IMG/VR virus record: IMGVR_UViG_3300024581_003939
Span: 3,513 to 67,512 of that record
Source: a virus
DNA: 64,000 nucleotides
Direction: 5' to 3' (one strand)
The notes beneath the pieces were generated by a model, which worked only from the letters and a program-made list of their open reading frames with translations, made no database searches and was not told where the DNA came from. This document shows, piece after piece, positions 2,519 through 63,013 of the stretch (positions are counted from its first letter, which is position 1; each line of letters begins with the position of its first letter). A program made the translations under genes and the position numbers.

Positions 2519-2525
2519 GTTAATT

Positions 2526-2573
2526 CCTCCTGCGGTTTATTCATAGTATAACACAAGAGGTAACTAATTACAT
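2526..2573 (-). promoter_or_regulatory. ligase promoter ATGTAA-N17-TATACT with flanking inverted repeat covering the RBS
   Basis: -35 at 2568-2573, -10 at 2545-2550; arms CCTCTTGTG (2552-2560) and CGCAGGAGG (2526-2534). Confidence 0.7.
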
Positions 2574-2574
2574 T

Positions 2575-3759
2575 TTATCCTGCTGGTACAACTGCATTAA
2601 ATGCATCAGCTATTTCTTGATTTGAAACATCATCTCGGAGCATACGCATTAAAAGAATCACGTCATCAGCATCCGGATTGTTATCTTTAAGATACTGAAT
2701 ATGTTCTGCTTTAAATTTTCCAACGCCTATATTTATCCCTTCAACACTCGTTTTAATCTGACGTATCCTTGTTAGTACTTCAGTCTGACCTGACTTATTA
2801 TAGATATTTAAATACTGACATCTTGAAACGTTATACTCCAGAGGCATCCCCTCTTCTTTGGGTGATAATGAACTTTCATCTGAGTCTGGTTCGCCTGTTA
2901 TACATCCGTGATACTTTTCTTTAATAACCGGTTTAAGATAATTTCTAATGTCTTGACTGCCTTCGTCTTGATTATCTGAATAATTTAAAAGCGGTATTTC
3001 GTTTTGGTTATCAGCTGTAATTGTTCCTGGGTAAACAATCTTATATCGCTCTAAAGCCCTGTTTGCTAAGTTTGTTATTAAGTCTTTTCCACCAGTTGAA
3101 AATTCATCGTCAAAAGCATGGCTTAATTCATGAAATATTGTCTCTCTTACAGCATTATCAAATGATCCCCAACCATCAACGTCATCGTTAGCGATAAGGC
3201 TCAATGCTGCTCTAAGTTTTTGTGCATATTCATTTTTCCCTAAGTGCTTAGAAAATGAGTCTGTATTAACGGAAACTTCCCCATTGAAAAAAGCACCTTT
3301 AACATCCAAACCCTGATTTTTGCTTTTTCTAAAAAACTCTCGCCACTCTTGATTGTTTGTATCCATGGAAAGTTTAATATCATCAAACTTTTCTTTCGTT
3401 GTTTTAATAATTTGAGGGATGTTGTTTAGATAGTAAGGATCATTTTGATCAGTTACATCTCTATATCTCTGCTCTCTTTCTTTCGGTACGATCAATTCAA
3501 GAATATCATTTAAGCCCTTTTCTGAATACGCCATGGAAGCTTTTTTAGAGAGTATACTCTTTACTTTTTCTCTTAATTTATTTGTCAGGTCGTTAGAATA
3601 TAATTTTCTTATAAAAGAATTCTTTGCATCTTCAAAGTTTTTATTTATTATTGATTCCATTTTAACAAAACTTTGGTCACTGCTATCTGTCTCAGAATTT
3701 TCTTCTTCATTGAGGTAAGATTCAATAATAATGTTCAATTGTCTTCTTGTCAGTCTCAT
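2575..3759 (-). CDS. putative zincin metallopeptidase with virion-type leader
   Basis: HELSH (HExxH) motif; N-terminus MRLTRRQLNIIIESYLNE. Confidence 0.55.
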   Translation of the reverse strand: MRLTRRQLNIIIESYLNEEENSETDSSDQSFVKMESIINKNFEDAKNSFIRKLYSNDLTNKLREKVKSILSKKASMAYSEKGLNDILELIVPKEREQRYRDVTDQNDPYYLNNIPQIIKTTKEKFDDIKLSMDTNNQEWREFFRKSKNQGLDVKGAFFNGEVSVNTDSFSKHLGKNEYAQKLRAALSLIANDDVDGWGSFDNAVRETIFHELSHAFDDEFSTGGKDLITNLANRALERYKIVYPGTITADNQNEIPLLNYSDNQDEGSQDIRNYLKPVIKEKYHGCITGEPDSDESSLSPKEEGMPLEYNVSRCQYLNIYNKSGQTEVLTRIRQIKTSVEGINIGVGKFKAEHIQYLKDNNPDADDVILLMRMLRDDVSNQEIADAFNAVVPAG

Positions 3760-3776
3760 GGTTATAACTATCTTTA

Positions 3777-4046
3777 CTATTTTCTTTTAACACTCTTTAG
3801 CTGCTTTTCATCATCACCACAATAGTCATGATGAATTGTCACAAATCTAAACTCTGACTGGTCAATAAGCTGATAATAATAAGAATTAGTGGGTTCGTGA
3901 ACGTGTGATGATCTTACTTCGGCAAATCTAATTTTATTGTTTCTATCTAGATAATAGCAAAAGTCGCCAGCTTGATACACGTCTGTTTCTTTTTCATCAC
4001 TTGCTTTTTCTTTTTTTAGTTTTTTTGTCTTTGTCTTTTTGGCCAA
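3777..4046 (-). CDS. hypothetical protein
   Basis: TTG start with AGGAG RBS; SH3-like YQAGDFCYY. Confidence 0.55.
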   Translation of the reverse strand: MAKKTKTKKLKKEKASDEKETDVYQAGDFCYYLDRNNKIRFAEVRSSHVHEPTNSYYYQLIDQSEFRFVTIHHDYCGDDEKQLKSVKRK

Positions 4047-4293
4047 CGGTCACTCCTTTTTTATTACTATACTGAAGTATTTCATAAATTACATAAAGTG
4101 ACACCCAGTTTATTCCGCCCTGAGAATTCTGTATTTTCATTGTCTTGTTGTCGACTTCTAAGACAATACCTATGATGTGGTCATTATCTAAACTAACTTT
4201 GATTAAATCACCAATGTTAACGCAAGCTTTTACCGAAGTATCTCTGCGTTTTATATTGATTAGATCTTCAATAGTCAACCTAGTATATGCCAA
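3997..4293 (-). CDS. hypothetical SH3-like protein
   Basis: VNIGDLIKV...IGIVLEV; basic tail. Confidence 0.55.
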   Translation of the reverse strand: MAYTRLTIEDLINIKRRDTSVKACVNIGDLIKVSLDNDHIIGIVLEVDNKTMKIQNSQGGINWVSLYVIYEILQYSNKKGVTVGQKDKDKKTKKRKSK

Positions 4294-4300
4294 AATTTCC

Positions 4301-4744
4301 TCATTTAATTTTCAATGCTCGTCTAATATCATCTACAGAAGCCGGTGATCTTTGTGTTTTCATTTTCTTTTTCATGTTGTCGATTGTCTGATCGATTGAT
4401 TTGCCTACTTGCGTCTTATCCAAGTCAATAATCTTTTTAAGCCCAGCAACGGAATCTTCTTTTGCACTAGTTATTCCAACAGCTGCAAGTGTAACGTAGT
4501 CCATTACAGTTTTGTTGCCAGGAGTTTCTCCGTCAATACTAAACTGAAGATCACCTACGTCGTCTTTGAAGAATTTAACTTCTTTTTGTTCACCGTCTAC
4601 TTCGATCACAAAGGGTTCAATATTGTCAAATTCATCTTTCCCGCTATCAGTAGCTTCATCTTCAGATTCGGTGTCAGCGTTTTCTTCTTCTTCAAAAATA
4701 ATCGATTCAATCAGGCTTTTGAGTTCTCGCTTAGTTATTTTCAT
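4301..4744 (-). CDS. hypothetical protein with virion-type leader
   Basis: MKITKRELKSLIESIIFE followed by an acidic stretch. Confidence 0.7.
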   Translation of the reverse strand: MKITKRELKSLIESIIFEEEENADTESEDEATDSGKDEFDNIEPFVIEVDGEQKEVKFFKDDVGDLQFSIDGETPGNKTVMDYVTLAAVGITSAKEDSVAGLKKIIDLDKTQVGKSIDQTIDNMKKKMKTQRSPASVDDIRRALKIK

Positions 4745-4774
4745 TGTTTTCCTCTATAAGTATAAATATCTTTT

Positions 4775-4810
4775 AAAAAATAAAAAAGCACCTCATTGGA
4801 GATGCTCTTT
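4775..4810 (-). terminator. intrinsic terminator after rpsU
   Basis: AGCATCTC-CAAT-GAGGTGCT stem followed by a T-run. Confidence 0.75.
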
Positions 4811-4827
4811 AGAATTCGAAGTAATTA

Positions 4828-5028
4828 TTAGCTATTGCGTGATCTCTTAGCATTTTTTCTTCTTCTTTTTTCAGCACGTGCTTTTTTCTTTTTCTTTTTA
4901 ACTGATGGTTTATCGTAATGCATACATTCTTTTGCACGACGTAATATTCCTTCTTTGTCTACTAGACGTTTAAATCTACGAATAATCTTTTCACCTGTTT
5001 CATTTTTTCTTGACTTTACTGTTGCCAT
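4828..5028 (-). CDS. rpsU: ribosomal protein bS21
   Basis: MATVKSRKNETGEKIIRRFKRLVDKEGILRRAKECMHYDKPS plus basic tail; ATG at 5028 with AGGAG (ORF-track start at 5070 is over-extended). Confidence 0.9.
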   Translation of the reverse strand: MATVKSRKNETGEKIIRRFKRLVDKEGILRRAKECMHYDKPSVKKKKKKARAEKRRRKNAKRSRNS

Positions 5029-5036
5029 TTTTTCTC

Positions 5037-5981
5037 CTATTGAATATATCCTGTACCAATTACTTCCCACCAGCTGTAGCTTTCAATTGTTCCACCAAAA
5101 TCAGCGTATTCTTTCTTTTCTATTCTGTGACGCATCATATGAATAGAGACTAGATTGCCACTCTGATACTGCTGAAAATAAGATCCAGGAATCATCATAT
5201 AACCTACATCTTCTGATTTACAAATAGTCGTACCGTAATAAGCACTTCCATCATAACTATAAACAGATATATGGATTGTGAAGAAGCTATTAGCATCACC
5301 ACTAGGGCCCCATGTAAAGACATTGTTTCCGTTTCTATTAATAGGCGCTTGAAAAGCGTAACTAGGGTCAACGTAAAGCATTTGATATGGTTCAATATAG
5401 TCAAAACCGCGCAATGTCTCTACAACGTTATCTGCTGTTTTATTTTGAACACTTAAGTTGTGTGACGTATTTCTTCTAAAACTACTTTCCTGTATATAAC
5501 TATTTTCATAAATTACGCCTGTTTGATCACTAGTTTTGTTTAGTTGAATGTTATCACCAAATGTATTTAAAAGGCTTACAGTCTGTCCCATATCCACGTT
5601 AGGTGCAGAAACTGATGACTCATAATAATCTCTGCAACCGTCAATTCTAGGTATCCAGCTTGTATGTTCGCCTGTTGATGCTTGATGGAATCTTACTTTT
5701 GCCGTTGTATTTATTTCTTGCTGCAAACCCATGCAGTAAGGACACGAAGCCTGCATCAGACCTATCTCAACGTAACCAATAGTTTTGCTAAGGTCTTGGG
5801 TTGAAGTATCGGACGTATTTGTATCTGTTTCTTCTGTTGTGTCATTTACACTATAACCCGTGTCAGTAAAAACTGTATCCGATGAAGAATCACCTCCTTC
5901 ACTTTCAATTGTTTTGGAAATATAGACGTCGCCACCGCATGCTATGATCGCTGCAGTTAGTACTGTTAAGATTGTTTTCAT
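5037..5981 (-). CDS. putative lipoprotein
   Basis: signal peptide MKTILTVLTAAIIA-C; Thr/Asp-rich linker; CxxC. Confidence 0.65.
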   Translation of the reverse strand: MKTILTVLTAAIIACGGDVYISKTIESEGGDSSSDTVFTDTGYSVNDTTEETDTNTSDTSTQDLSKTIGYVEIGLMQASCPYCMGLQQEINTTAKVRFHQASTGEHTSWIPRIDGCRDYYESSVSAPNVDMGQTVSLLNTFGDNIQLNKTSDQTGVIYENSYIQESSFRRNTSHNLSVQNKTADNVVETLRGFDYIEPYQMLYVDPSYAFQAPINRNGNNVFTWGPSGDANSFFTIHISVYSYDGSAYYGTTICKSEDVGYMMIPGSYFQQYQSGNLVSIHMMRHRIEKKEYADFGGTIESYSWWEVIGTGYIQ

Positions 5982-6110
5982 TTGCGTTCCTACCTTTTTG
6001 ATATTATATGCAAGTCTAGTCGATTGTTAATGTTACCTTCGCTGTATCGTTGTTTTATATTTATTAAGAAAACGGGTTATAATTTAAAAAATTACAAGGA
6101 GTATACAGTT

Positions 6111-6797
6111 ATGGAAAAAATTTATCTCTATGATGACAATATTGGATCTGTTGAATATGTACAACACATGGGAGACGATCTTACGATTGTTAATTCAGCA
6201 CGTGTAAGCTTTGGAAAGCAAAAGGAGGATCTAGATGAAAGAGATGAAAAGCTCATTAAATACCTCATCAAACATCAACACACCAGTACGCTGGAACATA
6301 ATGTTGTTACTTTTAGGTTTTGTGTTCCTCTTTTCGTTCGTAGTCAGCACCATCGCCATCGGACATGGTCCTACAATGAAATATCTCGTAGGTATACTGA
6401 TGTGAACTTACAGTTCTATTCGCCCAAAGAATTTAGGACTCAGCACAAGAGCAATCGTCAAGCAAGTAATACAGACAACCTCATCAATCCAACTGTTGCA
6501 CCGTTGTTTCTTGACACGTACTCTACTGCATCTCAAGCTATATCTGAGTGGCATACGCAGTCTCTAGATCTATTTGACAAACTTATTGAATCTGGCGTAT
6601 GCAGAGAACAAGCAAGAGGTGTTTTACCCCAGAATCTCTACACCGAGTATTACGGAACTACAAACCTCAACAACTTAATTAAGTTTATCAAGCTTAGAAC
6701 TCACGATGGTGCACAACAAGAAATTCGTGTAGTCGCTGAAGCGTGCAAAAAAATAGCAACCGACTTGTGGCCAGTTGCTATGAAACACCTAGAATAG
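6111..6797 (+). CDS. thyX: FAD-dependent thymidylate synthase
   Basis: RHRTWSYNEISRRY signature; ATG at 6111 with AAGGAG and upstream TATAAT. Confidence 0.95.
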   Translation: MEKIYLYDDNIGSVEYVQHMGDDLTIVNSARVSFGKQKEDLDERDEKLIKYLIKHQHTSTLEHNVVTFRFCVPLFVRSQHHRHRTWSYNEISRRYTDVNLQFYSPKEFRTQHKSNRQASNTDNLINPTVAPLFLDTYSTASQAISEWHTQSLDLFDKLIESGVCREQARGVLPQNLYTEYYGTTNLNNLIKFIKLRTHDGAQQEIRVVAEACKKIATDLWPVAMKHLE

Positions 6798-6802
6798 AAA
6801 GT

Positions 6803-8086
6803 TTATTTTCTAATCGATTCAAAAATGGTGCGTCGTATTGAACTTCGCACCATTTTTCTTATGGTGCTTTCTGTCATAGTGGTAGGTGCAGGCGTTGTTG
6901 CTGGATTTGCAAAATTACCAAACATACCTGTCACAATAAACTCACCTGTTATCTTAAACGGATATCTACTAAACTGTTGATTTCTAATAACAACACCTTC
7001 ATGATCAGTTTCGTCCGGATTAATACCGCTAGCAATCAAATCTCCAAAGTCACTTGTTAATCCTAAAAGAAAACGTTGTCCTAATTTTCTTGTTGCATGA
7101 AGAATGATTACACCGTTGATCAAAGACCTAACATGCTCAGGGGGTACAATATCATCTACGTTAACACCGTCTTGAATAATTGACAAATACGTTGCTTTGT
7201 GATACGGATTAATCTTTTTTCCGTCTAGCTTTGGTAATTCTACATCATAGTGAGGTGCATAATATTGTGCTGGTTTTTGCTCAATTGACATTAACCAGTT
7301 TTGCAAGCTAGCCCCTTGAAGACTTCTTAACTCCGGATCTTGTGCCAAATAACTTTCAGAAACAGGTATTGTGATTGTCTCGAGAAGCGCAGGCTCATAA
7401 TTGATTTCATTGTTTTCAAGAGTTCTTACTGGGACAGGTCCAACAACTGTGAAAGGAGGATCCATAGTTTGAGCGACAGCATTAGCTTTTTCTACCAATG
7501 ATGCCAATGCTGCCTTGTCATACGGAACTTCAACACTCTTGTCTTTTGTTGGTTCATCCTTACCTTTTCTCGGATTAAACATTAAAGGTTTTTCAAGACC
7601 GGGTCGAGTTACTTTTCTATAAGTTGACTCATAAAAAGCATTGACACCGTGCAAAAATATATAATTTCCGTCATAAGCTGTTGCATTACTAGTACCTGCC
7701 TCAGCAAACTCTGTATTAATAAAGTAGTGAGGGTTGTCATATAATCCCAGTGCTCTTAATTCGTCCTCAATTCCTGCTTGCCTCATAATTGTTAAAACAG
7801 TAGGTATAGCGTTTCTCATGCCGTGATCTTCTTTTGGAAAGCGATCAACGATATTGTTAAAACCAATTCCGGGAACATCAGCATATGCTCCTCTATCAAC
7901 AACGATCTGTTCATTTTCGTCAACTTTAAAAGAAACATTTGAACCGTCGAATTTTACATTAGGCACATCTCCTTCACCAGTCCCTACTAGTAATTTTAAA
8001 TCTTCAAATATATTGATTAAGTCTTCACCTGACTGCACTGATTGCAGATCGAAGGGATGTCTCATGTGTCCAGCTGCACCGCCCAT
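6803..8086 (-). CDS. RNA/DNA-ligase-fold nucleotidyltransferase-like protein
   Basis: MGGAAGHMRHPFD start; motif I-like VKFDGSN; motif IV-like HEGVVIR and KITG. Confidence 0.55.
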   Translation of the reverse strand: MGGAAGHMRHPFDLQSVQSGEDLINIFEDLKLLVGTGEGDVPNVKFDGSNVSFKVDENEQIVVDRGAYADVPGIGFNNIVDRFPKEDHGMRNAIPTVLTIMRQAGIEDELRALGLYDNPHYFINTEFAEAGTSNATAYDGNYIFLHGVNAFYESTYRKVTRPGLEKPLMFNPRKGKDEPTKDKSVEVPYDKAALASLVEKANAVAQTMDPPFTVVGPVPVRTLENNEINYEPALLETITIPVSESYLAQDPELRSLQGASLQNWLMSIEQKPAQYYAPHYDVELPKLDGKKINPYHKATYLSIIQDGVNVDDIVPPEHVRSLINGVIILHATRKLGQRFLLGLTSDFGDLIASGINPDETDHEGVVIRNQQFSRYPFKITGEFIVTGMFGNFANPATTPAPTTMTESTIRKMVRSSIRRTIFESIRK

Positions 8087-8102
8087 AATTATTTTCTCCT
8101 AT

Positions 8103-8714
8103 TTAAATCCAGTCGTCATCGTCATCGTCATCTGAAACATCTACGTCGCTAGATGATGAAGTATTAAGTTTGATATCATCTTTGGTAGGTGTCACAAATA
8201 CATTAGTACTAGCATATATATCATCTTCGTCAGGAATGTTCTTTTTGATAGGTTTCTTATCTTCTGAAGATTTTCTAATAATCGAATCAAGCCTAGAAGT
8301 AATATTAGGTTTTGGTATTTTTAAAGCAGGCTTGCTAACAGGATCTTTAGGGCCGGCAGGACTTTGTACTTCAGAACCAAACGGGATTCCTAACAAGAAA
8401 GATCTAGTCATTTCAAGAAGATGAGCTCTAAAATCTTCCACTTCATCAAATTCTTGATAGGCATCTACGTATTCATCGACGATAGTCCATCCTTCGTTTT
8501 TCCATTGTTCGATCAGACCTTGCACCGGACTGATTCCTTTCGCTTCACGTGTATAGATAAATGTCAATCGCACTCTTGTTGTTGTGGGTGCTGATGGTCC
8601 GTACGACCACATAACAGCATGCATATCTGAAGTTACGTTAACAGCTTCATCTGCAAGATAAGACTGTGTATACAGCATTCGTGTTTCGTAGTTAGTTTTA
8701 AAAGATGACATCAT
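8103..8714 (-). CDS. hypothetical protein
   Basis: 203-aa ORF with AGGAG RBS and acidic tail. Confidence 0.65.
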   Translation of the reverse strand: MMSSFKTNYETRMLYTQSYLADEAVNVTSDMHAVMWSYGPSAPTTTRVRLTFIYTREAKGISPVQGLIEQWKNEGWTIVDEYVDAYQEFDEVEDFRAHLLEMTRSFLLGIPFGSEVQSPAGPKDPVSKPALKIPKPNITSRLDSIIRKSSEDKKPIKKNIPDEDDIYASTNVFVTPTKDDIKLNTSSSSDVDVSDDDDDDDWI

Positions 8715-8914: not shown

Positions 8915-8915
8915 T

Positions 8916-9703: not shown

Positions 9704-9840
9704 TTTTTAATATCCTCGATTGTTATTAATTTTTCGCAAGATCTACTAGTCATGATTGAACCTCCCGGTCCTAACCAAGTCCACTCAGTTACTTTATAAG
9801 TGTGTACACCGTGCTGTACATACTTCACCTCTTTCTTCAT
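9700..9840 (-). CDS. 46-aa hypothetical protein (not in ORF track)
   Basis: GAGGAG RBS; MKKEVKYVQHGVHTYKVTEWTWLGPGG...; ATGA overlaps at both ends. Confidence 0.55.
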   Translation of the reverse strand: MKKEVKYVQHGVHTYKVTEWTWLGPGGSIMTSRSCEKLITIEDIKK

Positions 9841-10631
9841 GCAGCCTCCTCAGTCGCATTGTTTTCAAAGCTTTCAAAAACAACTGAATATTTAGGATTA
9901 TTCTCCCAATAAACAATTCGATCACGAAGCTTATTAATTGATTTTTCATATCTAATCTTTTCATTCGATAAGATTTGTTCTGTTTTTTCTTTGAGTTTGA
10001 CAGCTTTTTCTGAGCATTTACTTAAGCGTTCTTCCAGCTCCAAGATTCTTGCATCTCTTTCTGCAATTTTTCCGACTAGTTCCGCCTGAACCTTAGCGAT
10101 ATTGTCGACTGACACATTAATCATGTCACCTACAAGTGGAACTAGCTTTTTGAATGCACTGTCTTTTCTCATTCGGGACTTGCCTCGACTTCCGCTAGCA
10201 GGCGGAAAATAATCTTCAGTTGTCAAGCCTTCAAAAAACAAGACAGCGAATTGATCAAACGTATCATTTGCAACTACAAAGACATAGTCGAGTTTTTCTT
10301 TTAGCTTTAAAGTAGCCCAATCTGTCTGGAACGAATACGATACTGTGCCTTTACTTTTACTTCCCGATGTTAATTTACATTCAAGCTCTTTGTCGATATC
10401 ACAGATGACAACGTCGGGTTTGCCAGGGGTACCGTCGTCCAATACCTGATCAAACTTTTTTCTCAGGACTCTTGCTGTTTCTTTTTCTTGAACAGCACTG
10501 AGCAACATATTACGTCGACCAATATTTTCGTGTAGATCGTAGTCATAGTCTGAAAACAAATTTTTAAGCTGGTCTTCAAACTTTTGCATGCTTGTGATAA
10601 TTTCGATTGAGTCTTGTCTTGTCAAATACAT
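9837..10631 (-). CDS. PD-(D/E)xK restriction-endonuclease-like protein with coiled-coil tail
   Basis: KPDVVICDIDKELECKLT. Confidence 0.55.
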   Translation of the reverse strand: MYLTRQDSIEIITSMQKFEDQLKNLFSDYDYDLHENIGRRNMLLSAVQEKETARVLRKKFDQVLDDGTPGKPDVVICDIDKELECKLTSGSKSKGTVSYSFQTDWATLKLKEKLDYVFVVANDTFDQFAVLFFEGLTTEDYFPPASGSRGKSRMRKDSAFKKLVPLVGDMINVSVDNIAKVQAELVGKIAERDARILELEERLSKCSEKAVKLKEKTEQILSNEKIRYEKSINKLRDRIVYWENNPKYSVVFESFENNATEEAA

Positions 10632-10673
10632 AGAATAACCTTTTTTAAAGTGTTAATTGTTGTTACTCTATTA

Positions 10674-10702
10674 GTATATATTATTTATCTTGTTTTTACA
10701 CT
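10674..10702 (-). promoter_or_regulatory. promoter GTGTAA-N17-TATACT
   Basis: read directly upstream of 9837..10631. Confidence 0.55.
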
Positions 10703-15930: not shown

Positions 15931-15990
15931 TAATTATCCTGGGTTAAGATTGATACTTTATAGTATAACTTATTGCCCAATTAATTACAA
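15931..15990 (-). promoter_or_regulatory. helicase promoter TTGTAA-N17-TATACT with weaker RBS-covering inverted repeat
   Basis: -35 at 15985-15990, -10 at 15962-15967. Confidence 0.65.
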
Positions 15991-26971: not shown

Positions 26972-28563
26972 TGCCCACAACCTAAAACAGAATAGTCTAT
27001 CTGGATTGTTTTACCTGTCTCTGGAACATGACTAACATCAAAAAGAACAGTGTTTCTATAAGAATCGTAAGACCAGTCTGTTTCTGGTACAGAGTGACCA
27101 TTAACGTAAACTGTTATTGAGTCGACGTTAACATTTTCTTTGTCTAGTTCAAATTCTGACTTAAGCGAAACGTCTCTAGCAAGATCTTGCATTTGAAGTC
27201 CCCAGTCTGAAGCACATATTGAGTACCAACTCCCATTATAGCGTTGCGTTAATTCATAATATCCTGCACCAAATTCTATATTTCTGTTATAAAGAGAAAA
27301 TATTGTGCATCCAGCAGGATGATCTCCAATAACTGCAAACTGTCTGTGCTTAGTCACGTCACTCTTGATATTGTCAAAAAAATTTAAATAGCTTGACCAC
27401 CCATTATTACTGTAATCTTTTTCATCAGAAATGTATACAATTACAAGAGTTGCCGCCTCTCTAATAAATGTTGATAAAGGATCATTGGACATATTAAACA
27501 AAAGATGACGAACCATTTCAACTCCTTTTTCTTGACCTGACCCAGTTACTCCAATCCCAGATATTAGTGATTCAGACCAATAAACAGGGTCGTGATAACT
27601 AGAGTCAATCCATGAATATCCGTTTTCTGTTATTAGATAATGTGAGTCTGTTGTAATAAAACCTAAGTGATAATCGATACCTGTCAATAAAAAAATGTTT
27701 AAAAATGTGGACATTTGATTTTGAAGTTCGTTTTGAAATGGATGCATTGACCCAGAATTGTCGACAACGAAAATAATATCTAAAGGATCAGAGCTGTCTT
27801 GTACCCAAGATTCTGAAAACCATTGTTCGTCTTTACCTACGCCTGTCTGGCTTAGTACTTTTTCAGGAGTCAGTGGGTCATTACTGTAAATTGTTAACTC
27901 GCTATTGTCGTCTAATATATCATTAGGTACATAATCAATTAAAAGATCAGTTGATTCACCCGGAATCAATTCCGCAGGAATGATAAAATTAGCACCATAA
28001 GTAACAGTAATTTCTTGAGGTTGGGTGACCATTTGAGCAATATTACTAATTGTTAATGCCATGTTCCCCACGTTTGTGATCGTTATAACTTCTAGCATTT
28101 CACAACCAATACTTACCTCTCCAAAGTCAATTGTATCTACGGATGTCTGGATAACTGGTGCGTCACCTACACCAGCTACTGATATCTGCACTAAATCTTC
28201 ATCACTGTCATTTGTAGTTAATGTTATTTCTGACTCATTAACTTCATGTGTAATAGGTGAATAATAAACGTTGAAGTCGACAACATCACCCGGTTGTACT
28301 GTATATGTTTCTAAGAGATCATCGTCTAAAGAAAATCGACCTTCAGGTAGAACCGGCCTGTCAAATGACAATTCTCTATCTCCTGCGTTAATAACTGCAA
28401 AAGTCTTGAAGCCGGTTTCTGAAGATACATCAACATGACCAAAGTCAATCGCTGATGGGTATACAACAAGTTCCGGCTCTGTCTGAATTGTTTGTTTAAG
28501 TGCGTAGTCTGTACAAGAACACAACAATAGAATTAAGTTTATAAACATAAAAAATCTCCGCAT
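26968..28563 (-). CDS. lipoprotein with tandem Ig-like (ASH/choice-of-anchor D-like) domains and a vWA domain
   Basis: lipobox LLLCS-C; repeated IDFGxV...NxGxxxL; MIDAS DNSGS, ITTD, ISDE. Confidence 0.75.
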   Translation of the reverse strand: MRRFFMFINLILLLCSCTDYALKQTIQTEPELVVYPSAIDFGHVDVSSETGFKTFAVINAGDRELSFDRPVLPEGRFSLDDDLLETYTVQPGDVVDFNVYYSPITHEVNESEITLTTNDSDEDLVQISVAGVGDAPVIQTSVDTIDFGEVSIGCEMLEVITITNVGNMALTISNIAQMVTQPQEITVTYGANFIIPAELIPGESTDLLIDYVPNDILDDNSELTIYSNDPLTPEKVLSQTGVGKDEQWFSESWVQDSSDPLDIIFVVDNSGSMHPFQNELQNQMSTFLNIFLLTGIDYHLGFITTDSHYLITENGYSWIDSSYHDPVYWSESLISGIGVTGSGQEKGVEMVRHLLFNMSNDPLSTFIREAATLVIVYISDEKDYSNNGWSSYLNFFDNIKSDVTKHRQFAVIGDHPAGCTIFSLYNRNIEFGAGYYELTQRYNGSWYSICASDWGLQMQDLARDVSLKSEFELDKENVNVDSITVYVNGHSVPETDWSYDSYRNTVLFDVSHVPETGKTIQIDYSVLGCGQ

Positions 28564-28615
28564 ATAAATTAATTATATTGCAGAGATTCTCCTTATTAGC
28601 AAACTTAAGATAATG

Positions 28616-29851: not shown

Positions 29852-30141
29852 TTTTTAATACCAGAACTTAATTCATCCATGAAGTCTCTGATTGTTTCTT
29901 GAAATTCTGGATTGATTGCAATTTTCTTAAGCTTCTTTTGGTCCATTTCTACATCGTAAAGATCAGTAACCTCAGATGCAATCTTCATTAAAGCACGAAC
30001 ATATAGGTTGCGAGCTGTAGAATGATTCATCTTAAAACCTTGATCGTTAAGTTCATCTGCAATTTGATGATAAGTCATGCCGTCAAATTGTTTTGATGTT
30101 CCGTATCCGTTTTCTGATTTAAATCCTTTAGGCATTGCCAT
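29848..30141 (-). CDS. sigma region-4.2-like HTH protein
   Basis: MTYHQIADEL...MNHSTARNLYVRALMKI; AGGAG RBS. Confidence 0.6.
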   Translation of the reverse strand: MAMPKGFKSENGYGTSKQFDGMTYHQIADELNDQGFKMNHSTARNLYVRALMKIASEVTDLYDVEMDQKKLKKIAINPEFQETIRDFMDELSSGIKK

Positions 30142-30904
30142 TGTTGTCTCCTGCGTTGGTGTTGTTTTCTTCTACGTTATAAATATGTTTGTCATCTTCT
30201 AAGATTTCGTCTAATCCAAAACGAAGTCTTAAAACTAGCTCTTCTCTTTTCGACAAAGAAGATAATGCCTTAACAATTTTTTGTCGAATTAGCTGATTAT
30301 CAAGAATTGTTTCAATGTTTGTAGATGAGTTATCAGGAATAATATCACCTAATGTACGTGCTCCGTCTTCACCTACTTGTTGGTCAATCGATGAAATATT
30401 TCTACTTCTAATAGATGACATTGCCATTCTTACGTGTTTCTCTGTAATATCCAAGACGTCACAAATTTCTTCGATTGTTGGTTCTGTTCCGAACTCTTCC
30501 ATGTAGTCTTGCTTAAGTTGCCAAATCTTTCGTGCATTTGCAAGAGTATGAGAAGGTACTTTAAGGATAGTGCTATTAGAAGTAAGACTACGTGTTACAG
30601 CTTGTTTGATCCACCATGATGCGTAAGTAGAAAATTTAAATCCACGTCGCCAATCAAATTTTTCAACAGCTTTCATAAGGCCAATGTTTGACTCTTGAAT
30701 CAAATCTTCAAGTGTGGATCCGTATTTTGCGTACTGCTTCGCAATAGAAATTGCTAAACGAAGATTAGACTCAATCATCTTATCACGTGCACGCTTGTCA
30801 CCTAGCTCAATTCTTTTTGCTAATTCTACTTCCTGCTCGCGCGTAAGAAGTGTTGTTCTGTTTCGTATATCTCGAAAATAAGTTTCAAGAACTGAACTTT
30901 CCAT
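30128..30904 (-). CDS. RpoD/RpoS-like sigma-70 factor lacking region 4.2
   Basis: NLRLAISIAKQY, DLIQESNIGLMKAVEKFD, FKFSTYASWWIKQAV; ends soon after LSKREELVLRLRFGL. Confidence 0.9.
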   Translation of the reverse strand: MESSVLETYFRDIRNRTTLLTREQEVELAKRIELGDKRARDKMIESNLRLAISIAKQYAKYGSTLEDLIQESNIGLMKAVEKFDWRRGFKFSTYASWWIKQAVTRSLTSNSTILKVPSHTLANARKIWQLKQDYMEEFGTEPTIEEICDVLDITEKHVRMAMSSIRSRNISSIDQQVGEDGARTLGDIIPDNSSTNIETILDNQLIRQKIVKALSSLSKREELVLRLRFGLDEILEDDKHIYNVEENNTNAGDNNGNA

Positions 30905-30957
30905 AAAGCCTCCAATTTTTAATCTTTAATTTTTAGTAGTTGTTTTGCTATGTTTAT

Positions 30958-30986
30958 ATTATAAACAAAAAATGCGTGCGTTACAC
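30958..30986 (-). promoter_or_regulatory. sigma-gene promoter GTGTAA-N17-TATAAT
   Basis: -35 at 30981-30986, -10 at 30958-30963; overlaps the hsp20 terminator. Confidence 0.65.
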
Positions 30987-35948: not shown

Positions 35949-36001
35949 ACATCACCTCGTTTAAAACATATAATTTTATTTTAAACAATCGATTTGTTAA
36001 C

Positions 36002-52365: not shown

Positions 52366-53277
52366 TTAGATTATATGTCCTGAATTAATTTTAATTTCAA
52401 TTTTGCAATAGTGCCCTAGTCGATCACACTTAAAGTAACGAAAAACCTCAGAAGACAAATGCTTTATGAAGTTTAGGTCATATTTTAAAGTTTCTTTTAC
52501 ATTTGATGATCTTAAAAAGAATTTTGCGTCAAGGTGATTGTCTCTAATTAAAAAATGAGCAAGACTAATACAAGAATCATCAGTGTAAATAAATCTTCTA
52601 GACTCCAAGCTTTCTTTTCTTCCATACTCATTTTTACCTTTCATTTCTAGACTGATTTTTTCAAAGACTCTGTCTTGAATATATTCATAATATTCTTTTT
52701 CTTTTTCGTATAGTAAAAGGTCTTTGTCAACATCAGAAAAGTCACCTGTATCATAATGAACAAAATTAATACCTAATACTTCATTATTTTCTTTCGTACT
52801 GGCCAAAATTGTAGATAGAGAGCTGATATCAATCATTCTGTTATTAGTAACACTATTATAATGTTTCACCAAAGACTTGACCAGCTGTTCATCCACGATC
52901 TTTCTGACAACTGTTACGTTTGGATAATTTTGGAATTCATTTGCAGCCTCTTCAAATAAATCATATAAAGATTTAAGACTAGTGATATTTTGAATTGGAT
53001 CACCGCGTTTTTGAAAACGATCAACAATGATCTTCCAATCAGGCAAACAAATAATTAGCTGATTGTTTAAATTGTGCAATTCACGCTTAAGTTGTTCAAC
53101 ATGATTAAAAGTATCTCTACCGTAGTATCTTGCGTGAATGAGCATTGACAGTGCTGACCGGTCCTGGATGTTCCATTTATAACCTGATTCTTTATGAATC
53201 ATCTCGTATAATGTTGTTTTACCAGAGCAGTCAGGACCTTCAATAAAAATATAATCAATGGGTGTGCTGTGCGACAT
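52366..53277 (-). CDS. dNMP (thymidylate-like) kinase fused to a minimal thymidylate-synthase/dCMP-hydroxymethylase-fold domain
   Basis: P-loop EGPDCSGKTT and DRS; C-terminal SRR..SC...HFLIRDNHL...RSSNV..LKYD...NSGH. Confidence 0.75.
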   Translation of the reverse strand: MSHSTPIDYIFIEGPDCSGKTTLYEMIHKESGYKWNIQDRSALSMLIHARYYGRDTFNHVEQLKRELHNLNNQLIICLPDWKIIVDRFQKRGDPIQNITSLKSLYDLFEEAANEFQNYPNVTVVRKIVDEQLVKSLVKHYNSVTNNRMIDISSLSTILASTKENNEVLGINFVHYDTGDFSDVDKDLLLYEKEKEYYEYIQDRVFEKISLEMKGKNEYGRKESLESRRFIYTDDSCISLAHFLIRDNHLDAKFFLRSSNVKETLKYDLNFIKHLSSEVFRYFKCDRLGHYCKIEIKINSGHII

Positions 53278-58800: not shown

Positions 58801-59392
58801 GATTCGAAAAAATACCGCCTAGACAAGCTGTGGAAACATTAAGCCCTTTACCGTATTGTTTAAGAAGATCGAAGTCAATGCGAGGATATCTATAAAAGCC
58901 GTCAGTATAGGCACGTTTAATTAGAGTAAACAAGTTACCCAAACCTTCACGGTTTTGTGCAGTAACCACCAGATGATAACGTCGTTTCCATTCGTCTTTT
59001 CCTAGCTCGAATGTTTTAGTTTCATCTTCGTTTTCAATAATATGACCGCCTTCCTCTTCTTCTTTAATCGCTTTTTGCTTTGCTGCAGCTCGGTCGATCT
59101 TGGCTTGTTCGTAGTCTGATTTCCAATCTTTAAGTGAGGGGACAAAATAGAATTCACATCCGTAAATTTGACGGAATTTCTTGCCTTGCTTTTTTACTTT
59201 TTGTGCGTGCTTATAGGCGTGAGCAAGACCGCTACCGTTACCATGATCAGTTAATGCCCAGGCATCCATGCCGTTTTCTAGTACGAAGTCGATGTGATCA
59301 GACGGATAACCTAATCCATCAAAAACGGAAAAGCCTGTGTGTCCGTGAAAGCCAACAAATCGATCGGGTGGTGTAAGTAATTTGATATCCAT
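55874..59392 (-). CDS. dnaE: DNA polymerase III alpha subunit
   Basis: PHP domain (HGHT..S..DG, TDHG), GRGSGGGS-like ARGSGGGS, catalytic PDIDSD, KFDFLGL, FNKSH, HhH and OB domains. Confidence 0.96.
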   Translation of the reverse strand: MDIKLLTPPDRFVGFHGHTGFSVFDGLGYPSDHIDFVLENGMDAWALTDHGNGSGLAHAYKHAQKVKKQGKKFRQIYGCEFYFVPSLKDWKSDYEQAKIDRAAAKQKAIKEEEEGGHIIENEDETKTFELGKDEWKRRYHLVVTAQNREGLGNLFTLIKRAYTDGFYRYPRIDFDLLKQYGKGLNVSTACLGGIFSNRIMRGNALKLSDEQIQQELSYLSERFVDAVGEDNFYLELQFNRLKQQHLVNHHMLRHAQQTGLQLISTPDSHYYSPDKWEARELYKKLGWMGNDPSPLPEFEDLKCELYPKNAGQMWDEFTRHYEEYKDTYEGFEETIKKSIEITHDIAWEKCEDCWIDTSVKLPDFNNPNQSAFQQLAQKVKEALVKEGLHTKPEYVERTKAELEDIKFLGFENYFLVMNEVFHKAADHTLFGAARGSGGGSLVNFLLGITQVDPLKYDLLWERFLGRHRTSWPDIDSDAGDRDALINAARELYGDEAVIPVSNFNTLKLKSLVKDIAKFYGVDFGEVNKMTGPLQDEVMSQARDENTEKSVFVLKHEDCMQFSKGYREFMEKYPKVKDHIEALFMQNRSIGRHAGGVIIGPPRDLEQSMPIIGVRGELQTPWTEGMNFRNLEDNGFIKFDFLGLTLLKDVENCIKRILTRETGKEPTFLEIRDWFDKHLNCRYVDQDDEEVWKHVYHQRRKVGVFQFTAEGARRFCEDAKPTNIEELAALTAIYRPGPLRANVHKKYVKDKLRADEIHYEHPIIKDILGPTFGHVTFQEQFMLLAQKLGGFTPAESDKLRKTLVKKSLDTMGKKGDEREEARIKFVTGAKEINGVPEHVSQELWERIEFFSVYGFNKSHAIAYAIGSYYAAWLHTYYETDWLGTILESENNNPNALSKAIAEIKEMGYRVALPDVNESGTYWQWSEKKQAFIPPLTSIKGVGKTAVVEIMQNRPYESVASMLFDDDGKWRHSKLNKTGFASLCQVEAFNGLQEMWDGTIDNHKQLYNIIIDNYSNLKKSKWGMTARKAKKENAPEILPVLIDETRGTEDWGRIDKLTMYQDLCSATRDDLAFPDEMMEKIRSAGVKSVLNMLPGEKCIAWCCIVDMIKKTTKNKKTFYRLKITDYENNTGWLRMWGEKPESMVPYSIWLTEASNDPNWGASTSSRKIRPLVTD

Positions 59393-59397
59393 ATAAG

Positions 59398-59452
59398 AAA
59401 ACTCCTGGTATTATTTTTGTTATAGTATACCACAAGGAGTTTAAGATTACAT
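59398..59452 (-). promoter_or_regulatory. dnaE promoter ATGTAA-N17-TATACT with RBS-covering hairpin
   Basis: -35 at 59447-59452, -10 at 59424-59429; arms AAACTCCT-TGT-GGTAT and ATACC-AGGAGTTT. Confidence 0.72.
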
Positions 59453-59527
59453 TTTTAACTACTTATTAAACCTTGTTATCAGAAGCACTACCGTAAATAA
59501 ATTTGCCCTTATATAGTTTTCGCTTCC

Positions 59528-61336
59528 TTAAAACAGAAATTTCAAAGTGTATTTTTTTCTTTCACTTAAGTTTCTTTTTTCTAAATTATCTCTGGCACTA
59601 TCTCTTACTTGTTCGTCTCTATCGTTTAGTAATTCTTTTAAAGTTTGAACATTTGTATTTTGATTTTCTGCAACATTTTGCCTTACCCATTTATCACTGT
59701 CTCCTGACATTATTTGCAAAGTTTCAGATCGGGTTGACGGGTTTGAAGCGACAAATGATCTAACTCTTTTGCTGGTATCGTATGATAGCTTGTCTATGAC
59801 ATCTGGAGTTGCTGATTCATTCATTGCTATAAATACCCTTACCCATTCAACAGTATCGTCAGTCATTTTAAGCAAAGTCGTCGGGCCTGTTGATTCATTT
59901 TGAGCAATTGCTGACCTTACACTCCTATCAGCATCATCTGATAAGATATCTAACAATCTGGAGTCTACTGGATCTTTTTGTGCTATAGACTGTCTTACGC
60001 CACTTGATCGATCGCTTGTTAAGTTTTTTAATATCTCAAAAGGCGTCAATTCATTATACACGACTGATCTTCTTACATGTTCTGAAGTGTCTTTTGATAA
60101 CTTTTCTAGAAGTTGTAAATTTTCTAAATTTCTTGCAACTACTGATCTTACAGTTTCATCTTTATCATTTGATAGTCTTTCTAGTATTTCTGACTTAGAT
60201 GGCATGGATCTGTGTCCAATATTTTTTACTGCATTTAATCTTACAACAGGTGACGGATCATTTGAAAACTTGTTTAGTAAAACCTCATCATCAGTTCTTA
60301 ATGCAACATTTTGTCTTACGCTTTCGCTCTTGTCGTTTGACAAATAAGCTAATACTTCCGGTGAAACATTTCCTTGATCGAGAACCGAACTTATAAAATC
60401 ACTTTTTTCACTTTCACCGTAATCTTTGATGACAGATATTAAAACTTCTAAGTTTTCTGCGGACTTTTCTAATATTTCAATTGCTGGACTTATGCCGTTG
60501 TACTTTTGAACAGTTGAATTAATTGCGCTCATAATATCGTTATAGTACTGTCCTAGCGCTTTTGAAAAAGATGCTTGTGTCAGCCCTTTGTTTGATGCAT
60601 CGACAGATATACCTCCGTCTTGACCATGAAGCTCAATTTGACCCTCCACGAAACCTAAAGACATTCTAGAACAATTATTAGCCATGCAAGGATTTTCTTG
60701 ATATATCTGTGGGTCGTCAGGCTTTCTATTATAGTCCATTATGTAAAATAGCATCATGGACTCTCCGTGTGCACCGGCATAAGAATAAAATAAGTTTTGC
60801 CCATTTCTTTTTGTTGTGCACCAAGTTGTGGACTGAGGGTTGTCAAAGTCACAAGAAACTGACCCTCTGACTGTCTTAGGCAGAATAACGGTCCACGGGC
60901 CAAATTTGCCAACAATTTCTAGATCAGTACCGTTCTCTAACGAAACCATGGTTTTTCTGTCGTGCGAGCTTAAATCAACATTGACACCCTGTATAAAGTT
61001 GTCTAGCTCTTGAATTGAACTAAAGGACGAGAGGTTTAAGTAAGATAATATGCTAGGGTCATTAAGCCTCTTTGACTTAACCCTAACTTTTTGTTTAAAT
61101 GCTTCAGTTTTAAATTCTAAAACTGACTGAATTATGTGAAATAGGTCAAAGTTGTCTCTAATTTTTTGAATCCAGGAGAAGTCTTGAGTTTTAAGACCGC
61201 TGGCTTCGGCATTCAAGTATATTCTCTTATCTTCTTCAGAAATGTTTAAATTGTTAATATAATCTCTATCTCTTCTTCCTTCAGAAATAAGATAATTTTC
61301 TATTAATGTGTTCAATTGTTTTTTTGATATTTTCAC
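59528..61336 (-). CDS. WCT-motif family protein, paralog D, with LRV/HEAT-like repeats
   Basis: MKISKKQLNTLIENYLISE; TTWCTTKRNGQNLFYSY; C-terminal repeats. Confidence 0.78.
   Translation of the reverse strand: MKISKKQLNTLIENYLISEGRRDRDYINNLNISEEDKRIYLNAEASGLKTQDFSWIQKIRDNFDLFHIIQSVLEFKTEAFKQKVRVKSKRLNDPSILSYLNLSSFSSIQELDNFIQGVNVDLSSHDRKTMVSLENGTDLEIVGKFGPWTVILPKTVRGSVSCDFDNPQSTTWCTTKRNGQNLFYSYAGAHGESMMLFYIMDYNRKPDDPQIYQENPCMANNCSRMSLGFVEGQIELHGQDGGISVDASNKGLTQASFSKALGQYYNDIMSAINSTVQKYNGISPAIEILEKSAENLEVLISVIKDYGESEKSDFISSVLDQGNVSPEVLAYLSNDKSESVRQNVALRTDDEVLLNKFSNDPSPVVRLNAVKNIGHRSMPSKSEILERLSNDKDETVRSVVARNLENLQLLEKLSKDTSEHVRRSVVYNELTPFEILKNLTSDRSSGVRQSIAQKDPVDSRLLDILSDDADRSVRSAIAQNESTGPTTLLKMTDDTVEWVRVFIAMNESATPDVIDKLSYDTSKRVRSFVASNPSTRSETLQIMSGDSDKWVRQNVAENQNTNVQTLKELLNDRDEQVRDSARDNLEKRNLSERKKYTLKFLF
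59583..60363 (-). repeat. about ten 24-26 aa LRV/HEAT-like repeats (protein level)
   Basis: repeat unit LxxLSxDxxxxVRxxVAxN. Confidence 0.8.
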
Positions 61337-61361
61337 GCGAAGACCTTTTTAGATATAAGTA

Positions 61362-61766
61362 TTAACGCTCTCTACAATTTTCACACAATGTATAGATCCA
61401 GCCGCGATTATTATCTTGCTTTTCTGATGGTTTGCCACACTCTGTACAGATATGATATGACATAGACTCAGCCATGCTTACCAACCCATCAATATAATCA
61501 TCACTACCGTACGTGTAAAAGCAGAGGCCACCAAACTTTTCCTTGACTTGAACTGCTTCGCAAATAAGATGTTCTTCTTCTGGCTTGTTTCTATTAACAT
61601 TGATAATTCGATTTTGAATATTTTCACATAGGGTGTCGATTAGGTCGTACCATCCGTCTCCGCAAGAGATTCCCCAGCACATTGCTGTCACAGTTTTGTC
61701 TAGGTCTTTCTGGCGAAAGATGTTTGGGTATTTTTCATAAAGTTGTTGTTGAAGTTCTGCTTTCAT
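61362..61766 (-). CDS. conserved phage-type hypothetical protein with C-terminal Zn ribbon
   Basis: GWYDLI, QVKEKFGGL, CTECG...CENC. Confidence 0.7.
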   Translation of the reverse strand: MKAELQQQLYEKYPNIFRQKDLDKTVTAMCWGISCGDGWYDLIDTLCENIQNRIINVNRNKPEEEHLICEAVQVKEKFGGLCFYTYGSDDYIDGLVSMAESMSYHICTECGKPSEKQDNNRGWIYTLCENCRER

Positions 61767-61957
61767 TTTTCTACCTCTTGTTCTAGTGTTATAACTGACG
61801 TTGCGCCGTCATAAACAATTGCTTTTATTTTTCCTTTAGTCAGTGCTTGTATCTCTTTAAAGCCGTATCTATTATAACAGCTAAGGACTATAGAGTATAC
61901 TTTTTCACCTCTATAGTCCAAAGTTGATATCAAGTCACCCGCCTTTATTTCGGTCAT
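61763..61957 (-). CDS. small SH3-like protein
   Basis: IKAGDLIS. Confidence 0.5.
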   Translation of the reverse strand: MTEIKAGDLISTLDYRGEKVYSIVLSCYNRYGFKEIQALTKGKIKAIVYDGATSVITLEQEVEK

Positions 61958-62949
61958 TAAAAGAATTCCGTCAAATCGATATTCTTTTCTTGTGCTTCTT
62001 CAAGATAACGAAGTGGATTATACCCTTCTGACTTTAAAATACTTTCGTATGACATGCGTATACCTTCTACGAGACCTATCTTAGGATACCAGCCAGTATA
62101 CTCTCTGACTTTTCTACCACTTAAGATATGATTACCCATATATTCTGTTTGGGGTAGCCATTCAATTGTATCTGCGAAACTCTGGCCGCATACTTTATCC
62201 ATTAATTCTACTATTTCTCCTGTCACAAGTGGTGTTTCTGCCGCGATATTAAAGTCGTTGTTCCAACATTTGTCTTCTTTGATGCAGGAAAATACACCAT
62301 CACAATAGTCATTGACATGTAGATAATCTTTAATTTTTGTTGGATCCAAGAACATTTGAATCTTTTTTACGCCGTTTAATTTTGCATAAATAGTTTTTGC
62401 GATCAGAGAATTCATATCACCTTCACCGCCGTATGCAAAAAGAGGTCGAATAATCATCCACTTACTACTATGAGACTTAACTACTTCTTCAGCTGCTAGC
62501 TTTTGACAACCGTAAAAAGTATGAGGACCACGATCAGAGTCTTCTTCGATAGCAGTCTCTTGATACTTGGGTGTATCATAAATAACAGTCGTGCCCATAT
62601 AACATACAGGAATTCCGCATTTTTTTGCAGCACGACAGATATTGAAAGTGCCTTGAACATTTGTCAATGTTGATTCTTTTGAATTAAGCGCTACGACATC
62701 AGTTCCTACAACGGCTGCATTATGAATAACGACATCGATATTGTTGACTCTGAAAAAAGATGCCCAAGCCTCTTCTGAGTTTCGATGAATGCAGGGCTCG
62801 CCTTTTTCTGTTGTAAATTGTGAAACAAAAGCGGCATCTTCATTTATCTCGTGCACCCCAGAAATAAAGTTAAGACCATTTAGTTTGGCACGCTTCGCAA
62901 GATTAGTTCCAATAAATCCTCGCTCGCCAGTGATAAAAACATTTTTCAT
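61957..62949 (-). CDS. second NAD-dependent epimerase/dehydratase (SDR)
   Basis: TGERGFIG, HNAA, YGCQK, IRP..AYG. Confidence 0.88.
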   Translation of the reverse strand: MKNVFITGERGFIGTNLAKRAKLNGLNFISGVHEINEDAAFVSQFTTEKGEPCIHRNSEEAWASFFRVNNIDVVIHNAAVVGTDVVALNSKESTLTNVQGTFNICRAAKKCGIPVCYMGTTVIYDTPKYQETAIEEDSDRGPHTFYGCQKLAAEEVVKSHSSKWMIIRPLFAYGGEGDMNSLIAKTIYAKLNGVKKIQMFLDPTKIKDYLHVNDYCDGVFSCIKEDKCWNNDFNIAAETPLVTGEIVELMDKVCGQSFADTIEWLPQTEYMGNHILSGRKVREYTGWYPKIGLVEGIRMSYESILKSEGYNPLRYLEEAQEKNIDLTEFF

Positions 62950-62954
62950 AAAAA

Positions 62955-63013
62955 AACTCCTAGTTGTTAAGTTATTAGTCTATAACATACTAGGAGTCTG
63001 ATTAATTTTACAA
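62955..63013 (-). promoter_or_regulatory. RBS-covering hairpin with candidate TTGTAA-N18-TATGTT promoter
   Basis: arms GACTCCTAGT-A-TGTTA and TAACA-ACTAGGAGTT. Confidence 0.6.

Follow-up and report, generated by a model that had tools for sequence, protein, structure and literature searches.

Hairpins enclosing promoter-like sites at gene junctions

This analysis concerns hairpins that enclose promoter-like sites at gene junctions in a 64,000-nucleotide (nt) stretch of viral DNA, here called the window, which comprises bases 3513-67512 of a 72-kb IMG/VR viral contig (IMGVR_UViG_3300024581_003939; completeness estimate 22%). The minus strand carries nearly all genes, G+C content is ~35%, and sequencing runs with matching sequence are labelled estuary, seawater or marine metagenome. 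A nucleotide search of annotated phage records did not find a close relative, and a protein search of annotated phages returned relatives at <30% identity only. In a viral-contig collection we found related DnaE proteins at 79 loci, on contigs of up to ~236 kb, and took four large relatives whole: G001 (236 kb), G002 (202 kb), G003 (138 kb) and G004 (141 kb). Together with the window's own contig (G000), these make up the five-genome set used below.

A first-pass annotation had proposed that a promoter recurrently lies within a hairpin whose 3' arm is the Shine-Dalgarno (SD) sequence of the next gene, and had placed such hairpins upstream of a ligase gene, a "kinase-thymidylate synthase fusion", dnaE and a second epimerase gene (epimerase 2), and weakly at a helicase gene. 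The arm pairs quoted for the first four are all present where it placed them on the minus (coding) strand, and the architecture does recur at these sites; the helicase pairing fell to chance level. We identified two sites beyond that list, at the gene starts 28548 and 4046. The ligase, DnaE and epimerase identities were upheld. The supposed fusion gene (52366-53277), here called the kinase gene, gave weak kinase matches only (AAA_28; PHROG thymidylate kinase, E = 5e-11), and no thymidylate-synthase family was detected in it by Pfam or PHROGs. The features of the six junctions are as follows.

2521-2566, minus strand: ligase junction hairpin; ATG at 2518; 5' arm in the promoter spacer, SD GGAGG in the 3' arm, no T-run
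2560-2552 with 2534-2526, minus strand: ligase arms CCTCTTGTG and CGCAGGAGG; 9 base pairs (bp), two of them G-U
2545-2573, minus strand: ligase promoter-like site ATGTAA-N17-TATACT, with TATACT (2550-2545) in the hairpin loop
53282-53316, minus strand: kinase junction hairpin; ATG at 53277; SD GAGGT in the 3' arm, no T-run
53316-53304 with 53294-53282, minus strand: kinase arms; 13 positions with one mismatch; TATAAT (53303-53298) as the loop
From 53326, minus strand: ATGTAA motif of the kinase promoter
59393-59452, minus strand: dnaE junction; promoter ATGTAA-N17-TATACT at 59452-59424; ATG at 59392
59442-59399, minus strand: dnaE hairpin; SD AGGAG in the 3' arm, followed by the T-rich spacer TTTTCTTAT
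59442-59435 plus GGTAT with ATACC plus 59406-59399, minus strand: dnaE arms
62950-63013, minus strand: epimerase-2 junction; TTGTAA at 63013-63008; ATG at 62949
62999-62954, minus strand: epimerase-2 hairpin; TATGTT/TATAGA in the loop region, SD AGGAG in the 3' arm, followed by a T7 spacer
62998-62989 plus TGTTA with TAACA plus 62964-62955, minus strand: epimerase-2 arms
28549-28592, minus strand: junction of a gene for an immunoglobulin (Ig)-domain protein; TATAAT/ATAATTA in the loop, SD GGAG in the 3' arm, followed by a T6 spacer
4049-4102, minus strand: orf89 junction; TTG start at 4046; promoter ATGTAA-N17-TATAGT (4094-4066) wholly in the loop, no T-run
Arms at the orf89 junction, minus strand: 5' arm GTCACTTT upstream of the -35 box, 3' arm AGGAGTGAC being the SD; loop of ~38 nt

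Each of the named hairpins encloses or abuts a -10 box, with (A/T)TGTAA 17-18 nt before it; at ligase, kinase and dnaE, the -10-like box lies exactly 17 nt after ATGTAA. Minimum free energies (MFEs), with z-scores against dinucleotide shuffles, were -13.3 kcal/mol for ligase (z -3.5), -10.9 kcal/mol for kinase (z -4.1), -11.2 kcal/mol for dnaE (z -2.9; the MFE is -20 to -23 in G001 and L004) and -17.6 kcal/mol for epimerase 2 (z -5.3). The hairpin at the 28548 gene reached -18.7 kcal/mol (z -7.3), and that of orf89 was not significant by energy alone (z -1.7). With an SD (GGAG) and a T6 spacer before it, ATG 28548 rather than ATG 28563 is probably the start of the Ig-domain gene.

Predicted switch in SD accessibility

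We compared the folding of a 160-nt read-through RNA with that of an RNA beginning 7 nt after the -10 box. The probability that the SD is unpaired was as follows.

Ligase: long RNA 0.00, short RNA 0.64
Kinase: long RNA 0.02, short RNA 0.40
dnaE: long RNA 0.00, short RNA 0.33
Epimerase 2: long RNA 0.00, short RNA 0.33
28548 gene: long RNA 0.00, short RNA 0.32
orf89: long RNA 0.26, short RNA 0.74
Helicase: long RNA 0.70, short RNA 0.20

Folding with and without the 5' arm thus reproduces, as a prediction, the proposal that RNA from a gene's own promoter can be translated and that read-through RNA has its SD occluded. The proposal also placed the 5' arm outside the gene's own transcript. We infer transcript starts from motif geometry, and by that measure every plausible start for the embedded promoter indeed falls downstream of the 5' arm: the -10 box either sits in the loop or forms the end of that arm, so that the gene's own transcript would lack it.

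The predicted occlusion of the SD in the long RNA only speaks for a reading, taken up again below, in which the hairpins do nothing other than hide the ribosome-binding site (RBS). Three RNA-library runs cover parts of the window in short contigs (150-620 nt, depth 2-5) whose starts and ends are unreadable as transcript ends. One of these contigs (62796-63022) spans the whole epimerase-2 hairpin as far as the end of the upstream gene, which is compatible with read-through, with DNA carry-over also possible. A search against Rfam returned zero family matches in the window.

The helicase gene (start 15930) has a promoter, TTGTAA-N17-TATACT, in its upstream region (15931-15990, minus strand). We rejected the SD hairpin proposed there as chance: its duplex of -3.3 kcal/mol was equalled by 34% of shuffles, the z-score of the fold is -1.6, it is not conserved, and the long RNA shows no drop in SD accessibility.

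SD-to-upstream pairing exceeds chance expectation

Our initial hairpin scan required an unpaired -10 box and missed overlaps between arm and -10 box; it was superseded by a general hairpin census. A comparison of sense and antisense energies of selected hairpins was biased by the choice of the set, and a symmetric census was used in its place.

Of the 272 genes in the five genomes that have both an intergenic gap and an SD, 20 showed pairing of the SD with upstream sequence at -9 kcal/mol or stronger. The count in dinucleotide shuffles was 2.3 +/- 1.4 (maximum 7), so the excess is about ninefold. Five sites stand out in the window genome: ligase, kinase, dnaE, epimerase 2 and the 28548 gene. 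The pairing is also specific to each site. Across 59 promoter-gene pairs, the segment from -35 to -10 pairs with its own RBS region at a mean of -7.5 kcal/mol, compared with -5.8 for the RBS regions of other promoters (permutation p < 5e-5), and cognate pairing of -9 kcal/mol or stronger occurs at 16 sites, with 8.5 expected. Since non-cognate pairing is weak, the stems are dissimilar between sites. In a hairpin set picked on the sense strand, 106 of 717 stem pairs are G-U.

The arms covary across related phages

The dnaE -35/-10 promoter and the hairpin around its -10 box are kept in relatives from 94% down to ~55-64% protein identity. This hairpin occurs in at least seven lineages with differing arm sequences, and the arms, complementary though lineage-specific, pair at a mean of -17.5 kcal/mol with their cognate partners and at -7.8 across lineages. 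Column-wise covariation over all dnaE relatives would be invalid, since positions in the 3' arm do not correspond from one clade to another; we therefore relied on cognate versus cross-lineage energies and analysed one clade, clade B (L006, L008, L009 and L011-L014), alone. RNAalifold found a 13-pair helix in these seven sequences, in which nine of the 13 pairs are altered on both sides. The share of paired cells in this helix is 88%; shuffling lowers it to 72% and sliding to 37-56%, and 0 of 500 shuffles attained the observed values.

An estuary DNA run has a variant near this element, in which 10 other letters stand in place of the 45 bp that immediately precede the dnaE -35 box (window 59478-59524). 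Related genomes also differ in gene content in the stretch ahead of this promoter-hairpin.

Compensatory change is seen at other junctions as well. At kinase, both G000 and G001 pair the spacer to the SD with differing arms. The epimerase-2 orthologue in G001 has other arms that still pair, with TTGAAA-17-TATAGT as its promoter. The orf89 pairing is retained with compensatory changes in G001 and G002. At the 28548 gene, G001, G002 and G004 (four genomes with G000) retain the hairpin, SD and T-run, with unrelated arms. The compensatory changes that the first-pass annotation suggested looking for in related phages are thus present at dnaE, kinase, epimerase 2, orf89 and the 28548 gene, and to judge from this covariation the hairpins are under selection.

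Not every element has been retained. The ligase element occurs only in the window genome and is absent from G001 and G002, where orf89 abuts ligase; the kinase hairpin is lost in three close relatives (L082-L084) that retain the promoter. The SD-masking version of the element is therefore evolutionarily labile.

One further hairpin lies at 35957-35988 on the minus strand. This AU-rich hairpin, upstream of a gene for a 119-amino-acid protein (start 35948), has TAAAAT in its loop and ends beside the SD GAGGTG (MFE -7.4, z -4.8). The orthologues in G003 and G004 have other hairpins at or beside the SD.

Many hairpins carry a terminator signature

At least five T in the 8 nt after the hairpin were found for 38% of intergenic and 7% of coding-sequence hairpins in the five genomes. 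When the SD lies in a hairpin arm, the spacer between SD and ATG has a T fraction of 0.64, against 0.31 otherwise (p = 2e-7), and the spacer is at least 60% T at 13 of 23 SD-in-arm hairpins, against 11.5% otherwise. Such T-rich spacers are not predicted by RBS masking alone. In clade B dnaE, the 3' arm begins right after the -10 box, the TATAAT box forms the loop and a T-run follows; the SD is free, outside the hairpin and further downstream. A neutral scanner called these hairpins terminator-like.

The proposal that the hairpins serve solely to hide the RBS is therefore sustained in its first part, the predicted SD occlusion, and falls short elsewhere: it did not consider termination, the clade B SD lies outside the hairpin, and T-runs follow at 13 of the 23 sites. 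Within the window, dnaE, epimerase 2 and the 28548 gene have T-runs, and ligase, kinase and orf89 do not. These last three, without a T-run and in the case of orf89 with a loop of ~38 nt, could act only through the SD, and this much agrees with pure masking.

The same signature raises the converse possibility that these are ordinary intrinsic terminators of the upstream genes, that they overlap the -10 box and SD simply because the genome of an AT-rich phage has become compact, and that masking is unselected. The SD and its complement would supply the G+C of the stem, and AT-rich boxes suit loops; clade B has the canonical form, the T-run association is general, and in several hairpins with the SD in an arm no promoter can be recognised within the loop. 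This reading also fits a second geometry, seen for instance at the sigma-gene promoter of relatives, in which the loop contains the -35 TGTAA and the spacer contains the T-run. We nevertheless consider it quite improbable: the ligase, kinase and orf89 hairpins lack a T-run and yet are significant, covarying or both; window loops of 9-20 nt are poor for termination; and the orf89 hairpin, with its 5' arm upstream of the -35 box and its long loop, is incompatible with a terminator.

Five hairpins in the relatives (G003:133637, G001:199990, G002:152448, G004:118816 and G004:120486, in forward-oriented coordinates; -15 to -23 kcal/mol) hold the next SD in their 3' arm and have a T-run before the ATG, with no recognisable -35/-10 in the loop.

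Two classes of promoter-like sequence

In four related contigs, TGTAA-N17-TATAAT had 35 coding-strand matches and a single match on the opposite strand, with 0-1 matches for a reversed-pattern control; on this strand bias it is a real promoter-like class. Most of the 59 promoter-gene pairs in the five genomes have AAAA before (G/A)TGTAA and an SD 12-60 nt past the -10 box. In the window, a promoter of this type also precedes helicase, orf89, a gene for a 264-amino-acid protein and a phage sigma-factor gene.

A second promoter-like word, ATAnTTA, was recovered independently as TAATTATA and is not accompanied by a -35 box. Its matches are strongly concentrated 25-36 nt before start codons, with 94 in those two bins and ~5-15 per bin elsewhere. 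It is found genome-wide in G001-G004 and, in the window, as follows.

Upstream of 25777, 28548, 41092, 46851, 48451 and 61336, minus strand: ATAnTTA / TAATTATA

ATAnTTA, which the leader-bearing genes described below favour, is on that account a candidate promoter for the phage-encoded sigma factor (30128-30904). It also occurs in the loops of terminator-like or SD-covering hairpins, including the one at 28548.

Two observations concern the genes just mentioned. The 5' leader of the sigma gene (~30905-30965, minus strand) is made up of A-rich (A/C)ATTAAA-type repeats, which form tandem arrays in G002 and G003, and the -35 TGTAA of the sigma-gene promoter lies inside a hairpin loop in G001, G002 and G004. 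The leader of the 264-amino-acid gene (start 10631; window 9837-10700, minus strand) has a hairpin of AGAGTAAC with GGTTATTCT that covers the SD/AUG region. Because the -10 box precedes this hairpin, RNA made from the gene's own promoter would contain it. G001 retains the hairpin and G002 has a related pairing; the structure may be a translational operator of another kind than the hairpins that enclose promoters.

Leader genes upstream of the elements

The first-pass annotation had noted that the genes preceding ligase, kinase and dnaE carry a "virion-type leader", and at all three the gene just upstream does so. This leader is a shared protein N-terminus, MKITRRQL..LI-like, of the pattern M-K-I-T/S-K/R-K/R-Q-L-x-x-I/L-I-E-x-Y-L, found on otherwise unrelated proteins at 39 genes in the five genomes. 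Its genes start in the window as follows.

3759, 19847, 24570, 44966, 55756 and 61336, minus strand: starts of leader genes

ATG 55756, which is preceded by AAGGA and opens a protein with MKITKRQL, is probably the start of its gene, rather than ATG 55768.

Leader genes have ATAnTTA upstream in 10 of 39 cases, against 13% of other genes (p = 0.03), and a TGTAA-type promoter in 1 of 39. Hairpins covering the SD follow leader genes at 5 of 39 and other genes at 22 of 826 (p = 0.006; the cases are not all independent). A 394-amino-acid leader gene is inserted between orf89 and ligase in the window genome only, and only there does ligase have its promoter-hairpin. Different leader genes lie directly upstream of the dnaE element in G000 and G002, and the element is present in G001 with no leader gene before it. 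Another leader gene precedes epimerase 2 in G001. Together these observations lend indirect support to the idea that genes from two expression classes alternate here and that the junctions insulate them.

These data bear on the reading in which the hairpins only hide the RBS and silence replication genes in late read-through from leader genes, the reverse of the arrangement at T4 gene e. Its favour lies in the leader genes before ligase, kinase and dnaE, which prefer ATAnTTA over TGTAA-type promoters, in the enrichment of SD-covering hairpins after such genes and in a ligase element confined to the genome where a leader gene was inserted, in addition to the predicted occlusion and the three junctions free of T-runs. 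Against it, the SD of clade B dnaE is outside the hairpin, the T-run signature is present at 13 of 23 sites, the dnaE element of G001 has no leader gene upstream, and ATAnTTA-type motifs occur in such hairpins too. We therefore regard it as unlikely. The reverse-T4 idea has indirect support in the two interleaved promoter classes and the leader-gene association; the leaderless dnaE element and ATAnTTA in the same geometry do not fit it. ATAnTTA in the loop of the same kind of hairpin would point to insulation in both directions, and not specifically to replication genes being shut off late.

A further reading gives the elements a role at the level of DNA, in which the inverted repeats flanking the -10 box are operators for a dimeric regulator or recombination cassettes for gene shuffling, like the promoter-early stem-loops (PeSLs) of T4-type phages. 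The different or missing leader genes upstream of the same dnaE element, the variant in which 45 bp are exchanged for 10 nt just upstream of its -35 box, and the PeSL precedent (PMC2839356) would agree with this. We find this role very improbable: only complementarity is kept and the arm sequences vary, which argues against both a sequence-specific binder and recombination by stem homology, G-U pairs are frequent (106 of 717), and strong intergenic hairpins are commoner on the sense strand.

Junction modules as probable insulators

Our data are best accounted for by compact junction modules, each combining a terminator and/or RBS mask with a promoter and an RBS, that probably insulate a gene from transcription of its upstream neighbour. 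In such a module, one hairpin overlies the promoter of the downstream gene. Its 5' arm falls within the -35/-10 spacer or ahead of it, its loop contains the -10 box, and its 3' arm comes just past that box or coincides with the SD; a T-run often doubles as the SD-ATG spacer. RNA arriving from upstream would hold both arms and fold. At sites with a T-run this would lead to intrinsic termination, and at sites with the SD in the arm any read-through RNA would be untranslatable. RNA from the embedded promoter would lack the 5' arm and be translated. The net effect would be a gene driven by its own promoter alone and insulated from a neighbour of another expression class, through two overlapping devices, termination and RBS masking, in proportions that depend on the site. 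What we show directly is the anatomy, the excess over shuffles, the covarying arms, the predicted accessibility switch, the T-run association and the two promoter-like classes; that termination and translational masking really occur, and which class is early or late, we infer.

Several observations weigh against these insulating modules. The loops in the window (9-20 nt) are longer than those of efficient intrinsic terminators, and the scanner did not flag the window elements. Several SD-in-arm hairpins contain no recognisable promoter, and among the 59 promoters of the TGTAA class such pairing is found at only ~10-15, about a fifth. Strong intergenic hairpins number 40 sense to 15 antisense, modestly above the coding-sequence baseline of 66 to 45. 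The kinase and ligase hairpins are evolutionarily labile, so their benefit may be small or dependent on context.

Two other explanations were set aside. Translational coupling was rejected. A reading of the hairpins as RNase III sites was also rejected, as typical RNase III substrates are longer than the 9-16 bp stems seen here.

A broader version of the insulating-module reading is possible but doubtful. Here, the lineage would interleave genes with sigma70-like TGTAA-N17-TATAAT promoters and genes with -35-less ATAnTTA, which the phage sigma factor might read, and the three-in-one hairpins (terminator, promoter and RBS mask) would act as two-way temporal insulators, true reverse-T4 silencing included, with the junctions doubling as preferred insertion points for leader-tagged, possibly capsid-targeted cassettes.

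Comparison with known systems

The closest parallel for RBS masking is in phage T4, where helices that sequester SD/AUG, and whose 5' strand contains a late promoter, occur at the e, soc, 49 and I-TevI genes, and where the structure at gene e cuts lysozyme synthesis 100-fold (PMC3014915). As in the window, SD and/or AUG lie in a helix of the long, upstream-initiated RNA, and a promoter in the 5' strand gives a shorter, translatable RNA. In T4, however, the internal promoter is of the gp55 late type (TATAAATA) and it is early or middle RNAs that are masked, whereas the four named sites here have sigma70-like -35/-10 promoters before replication-type genes. Judged by motif, their internal promoters do not match a late class: the same class also precedes the phage sigma gene, helicase and ligase, and ATAnTTA is in the loop only at sites other than these four, for example 28548. 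Unlike the T4 helices, many of the sites here add a T-run, the terminator signature, and the lineage, represented by uncultured DnaE-encoding contigs that reach ~236 kb, is unrelated.

PeSLs, described in the T4-type phages RB49/phi1, PST and nt-1, are cassettes of a sigma70 promoter and a stem-loop terminator; promoter activity and terminator/attenuator activity have both been shown, and the cassettes are tied to modular gene shuffling and variable gene content (PMC2839356, PMC4122927). The elements described here share with them the sigma70-like promoter, the A/T-rich upstream region and the SD and start codon at the 3' end. They also share the position of the stem-loop, which in PeSLs lies between -35 and -10 or overlaps -10 and here has its 5' arm in the spacer. 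The PeSL stem-loop is repeated and conserved in sequence (for example Gn-loop-Cn) and does not include the SD; here the arms are site-specific, the loop contains the -10 box, and the 3' arm follows that box and is often the SD itself. Variable leader genes sit immediately upstream of the elements.

Like intrinsic terminators, the elements at dnaE, epimerase 2 and 28548 have a 9-16 bp stem followed by a T-run, and clade B dnaE fits the scanner's definition. In contrast to intrinsic terminators, window loops measure 9-20 nt (versus 3-8 nt), ligase, kinase and orf89 lack the T-run, and each element also contains a promoter and the RBS of the next gene.

No new mechanism is opened by these elements. 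Two designs known from T4-like coliphages occur, fused in one element of ~60 nt, in an unrelated group of uncultured marine or estuarine phages. The elements mark boundaries of transcription units and promoter classes in genomes of mostly unknown genes, correct start codons (28548, probably 55756) and represent compact natural insulator parts. They are a variant that fuses the known T4-type masking and PeSL designs, and what sets them apart from both is the combination of covarying, site-specific arms, a -10 box in the loop, an SD that is itself the 3' arm and a T-run spacer.

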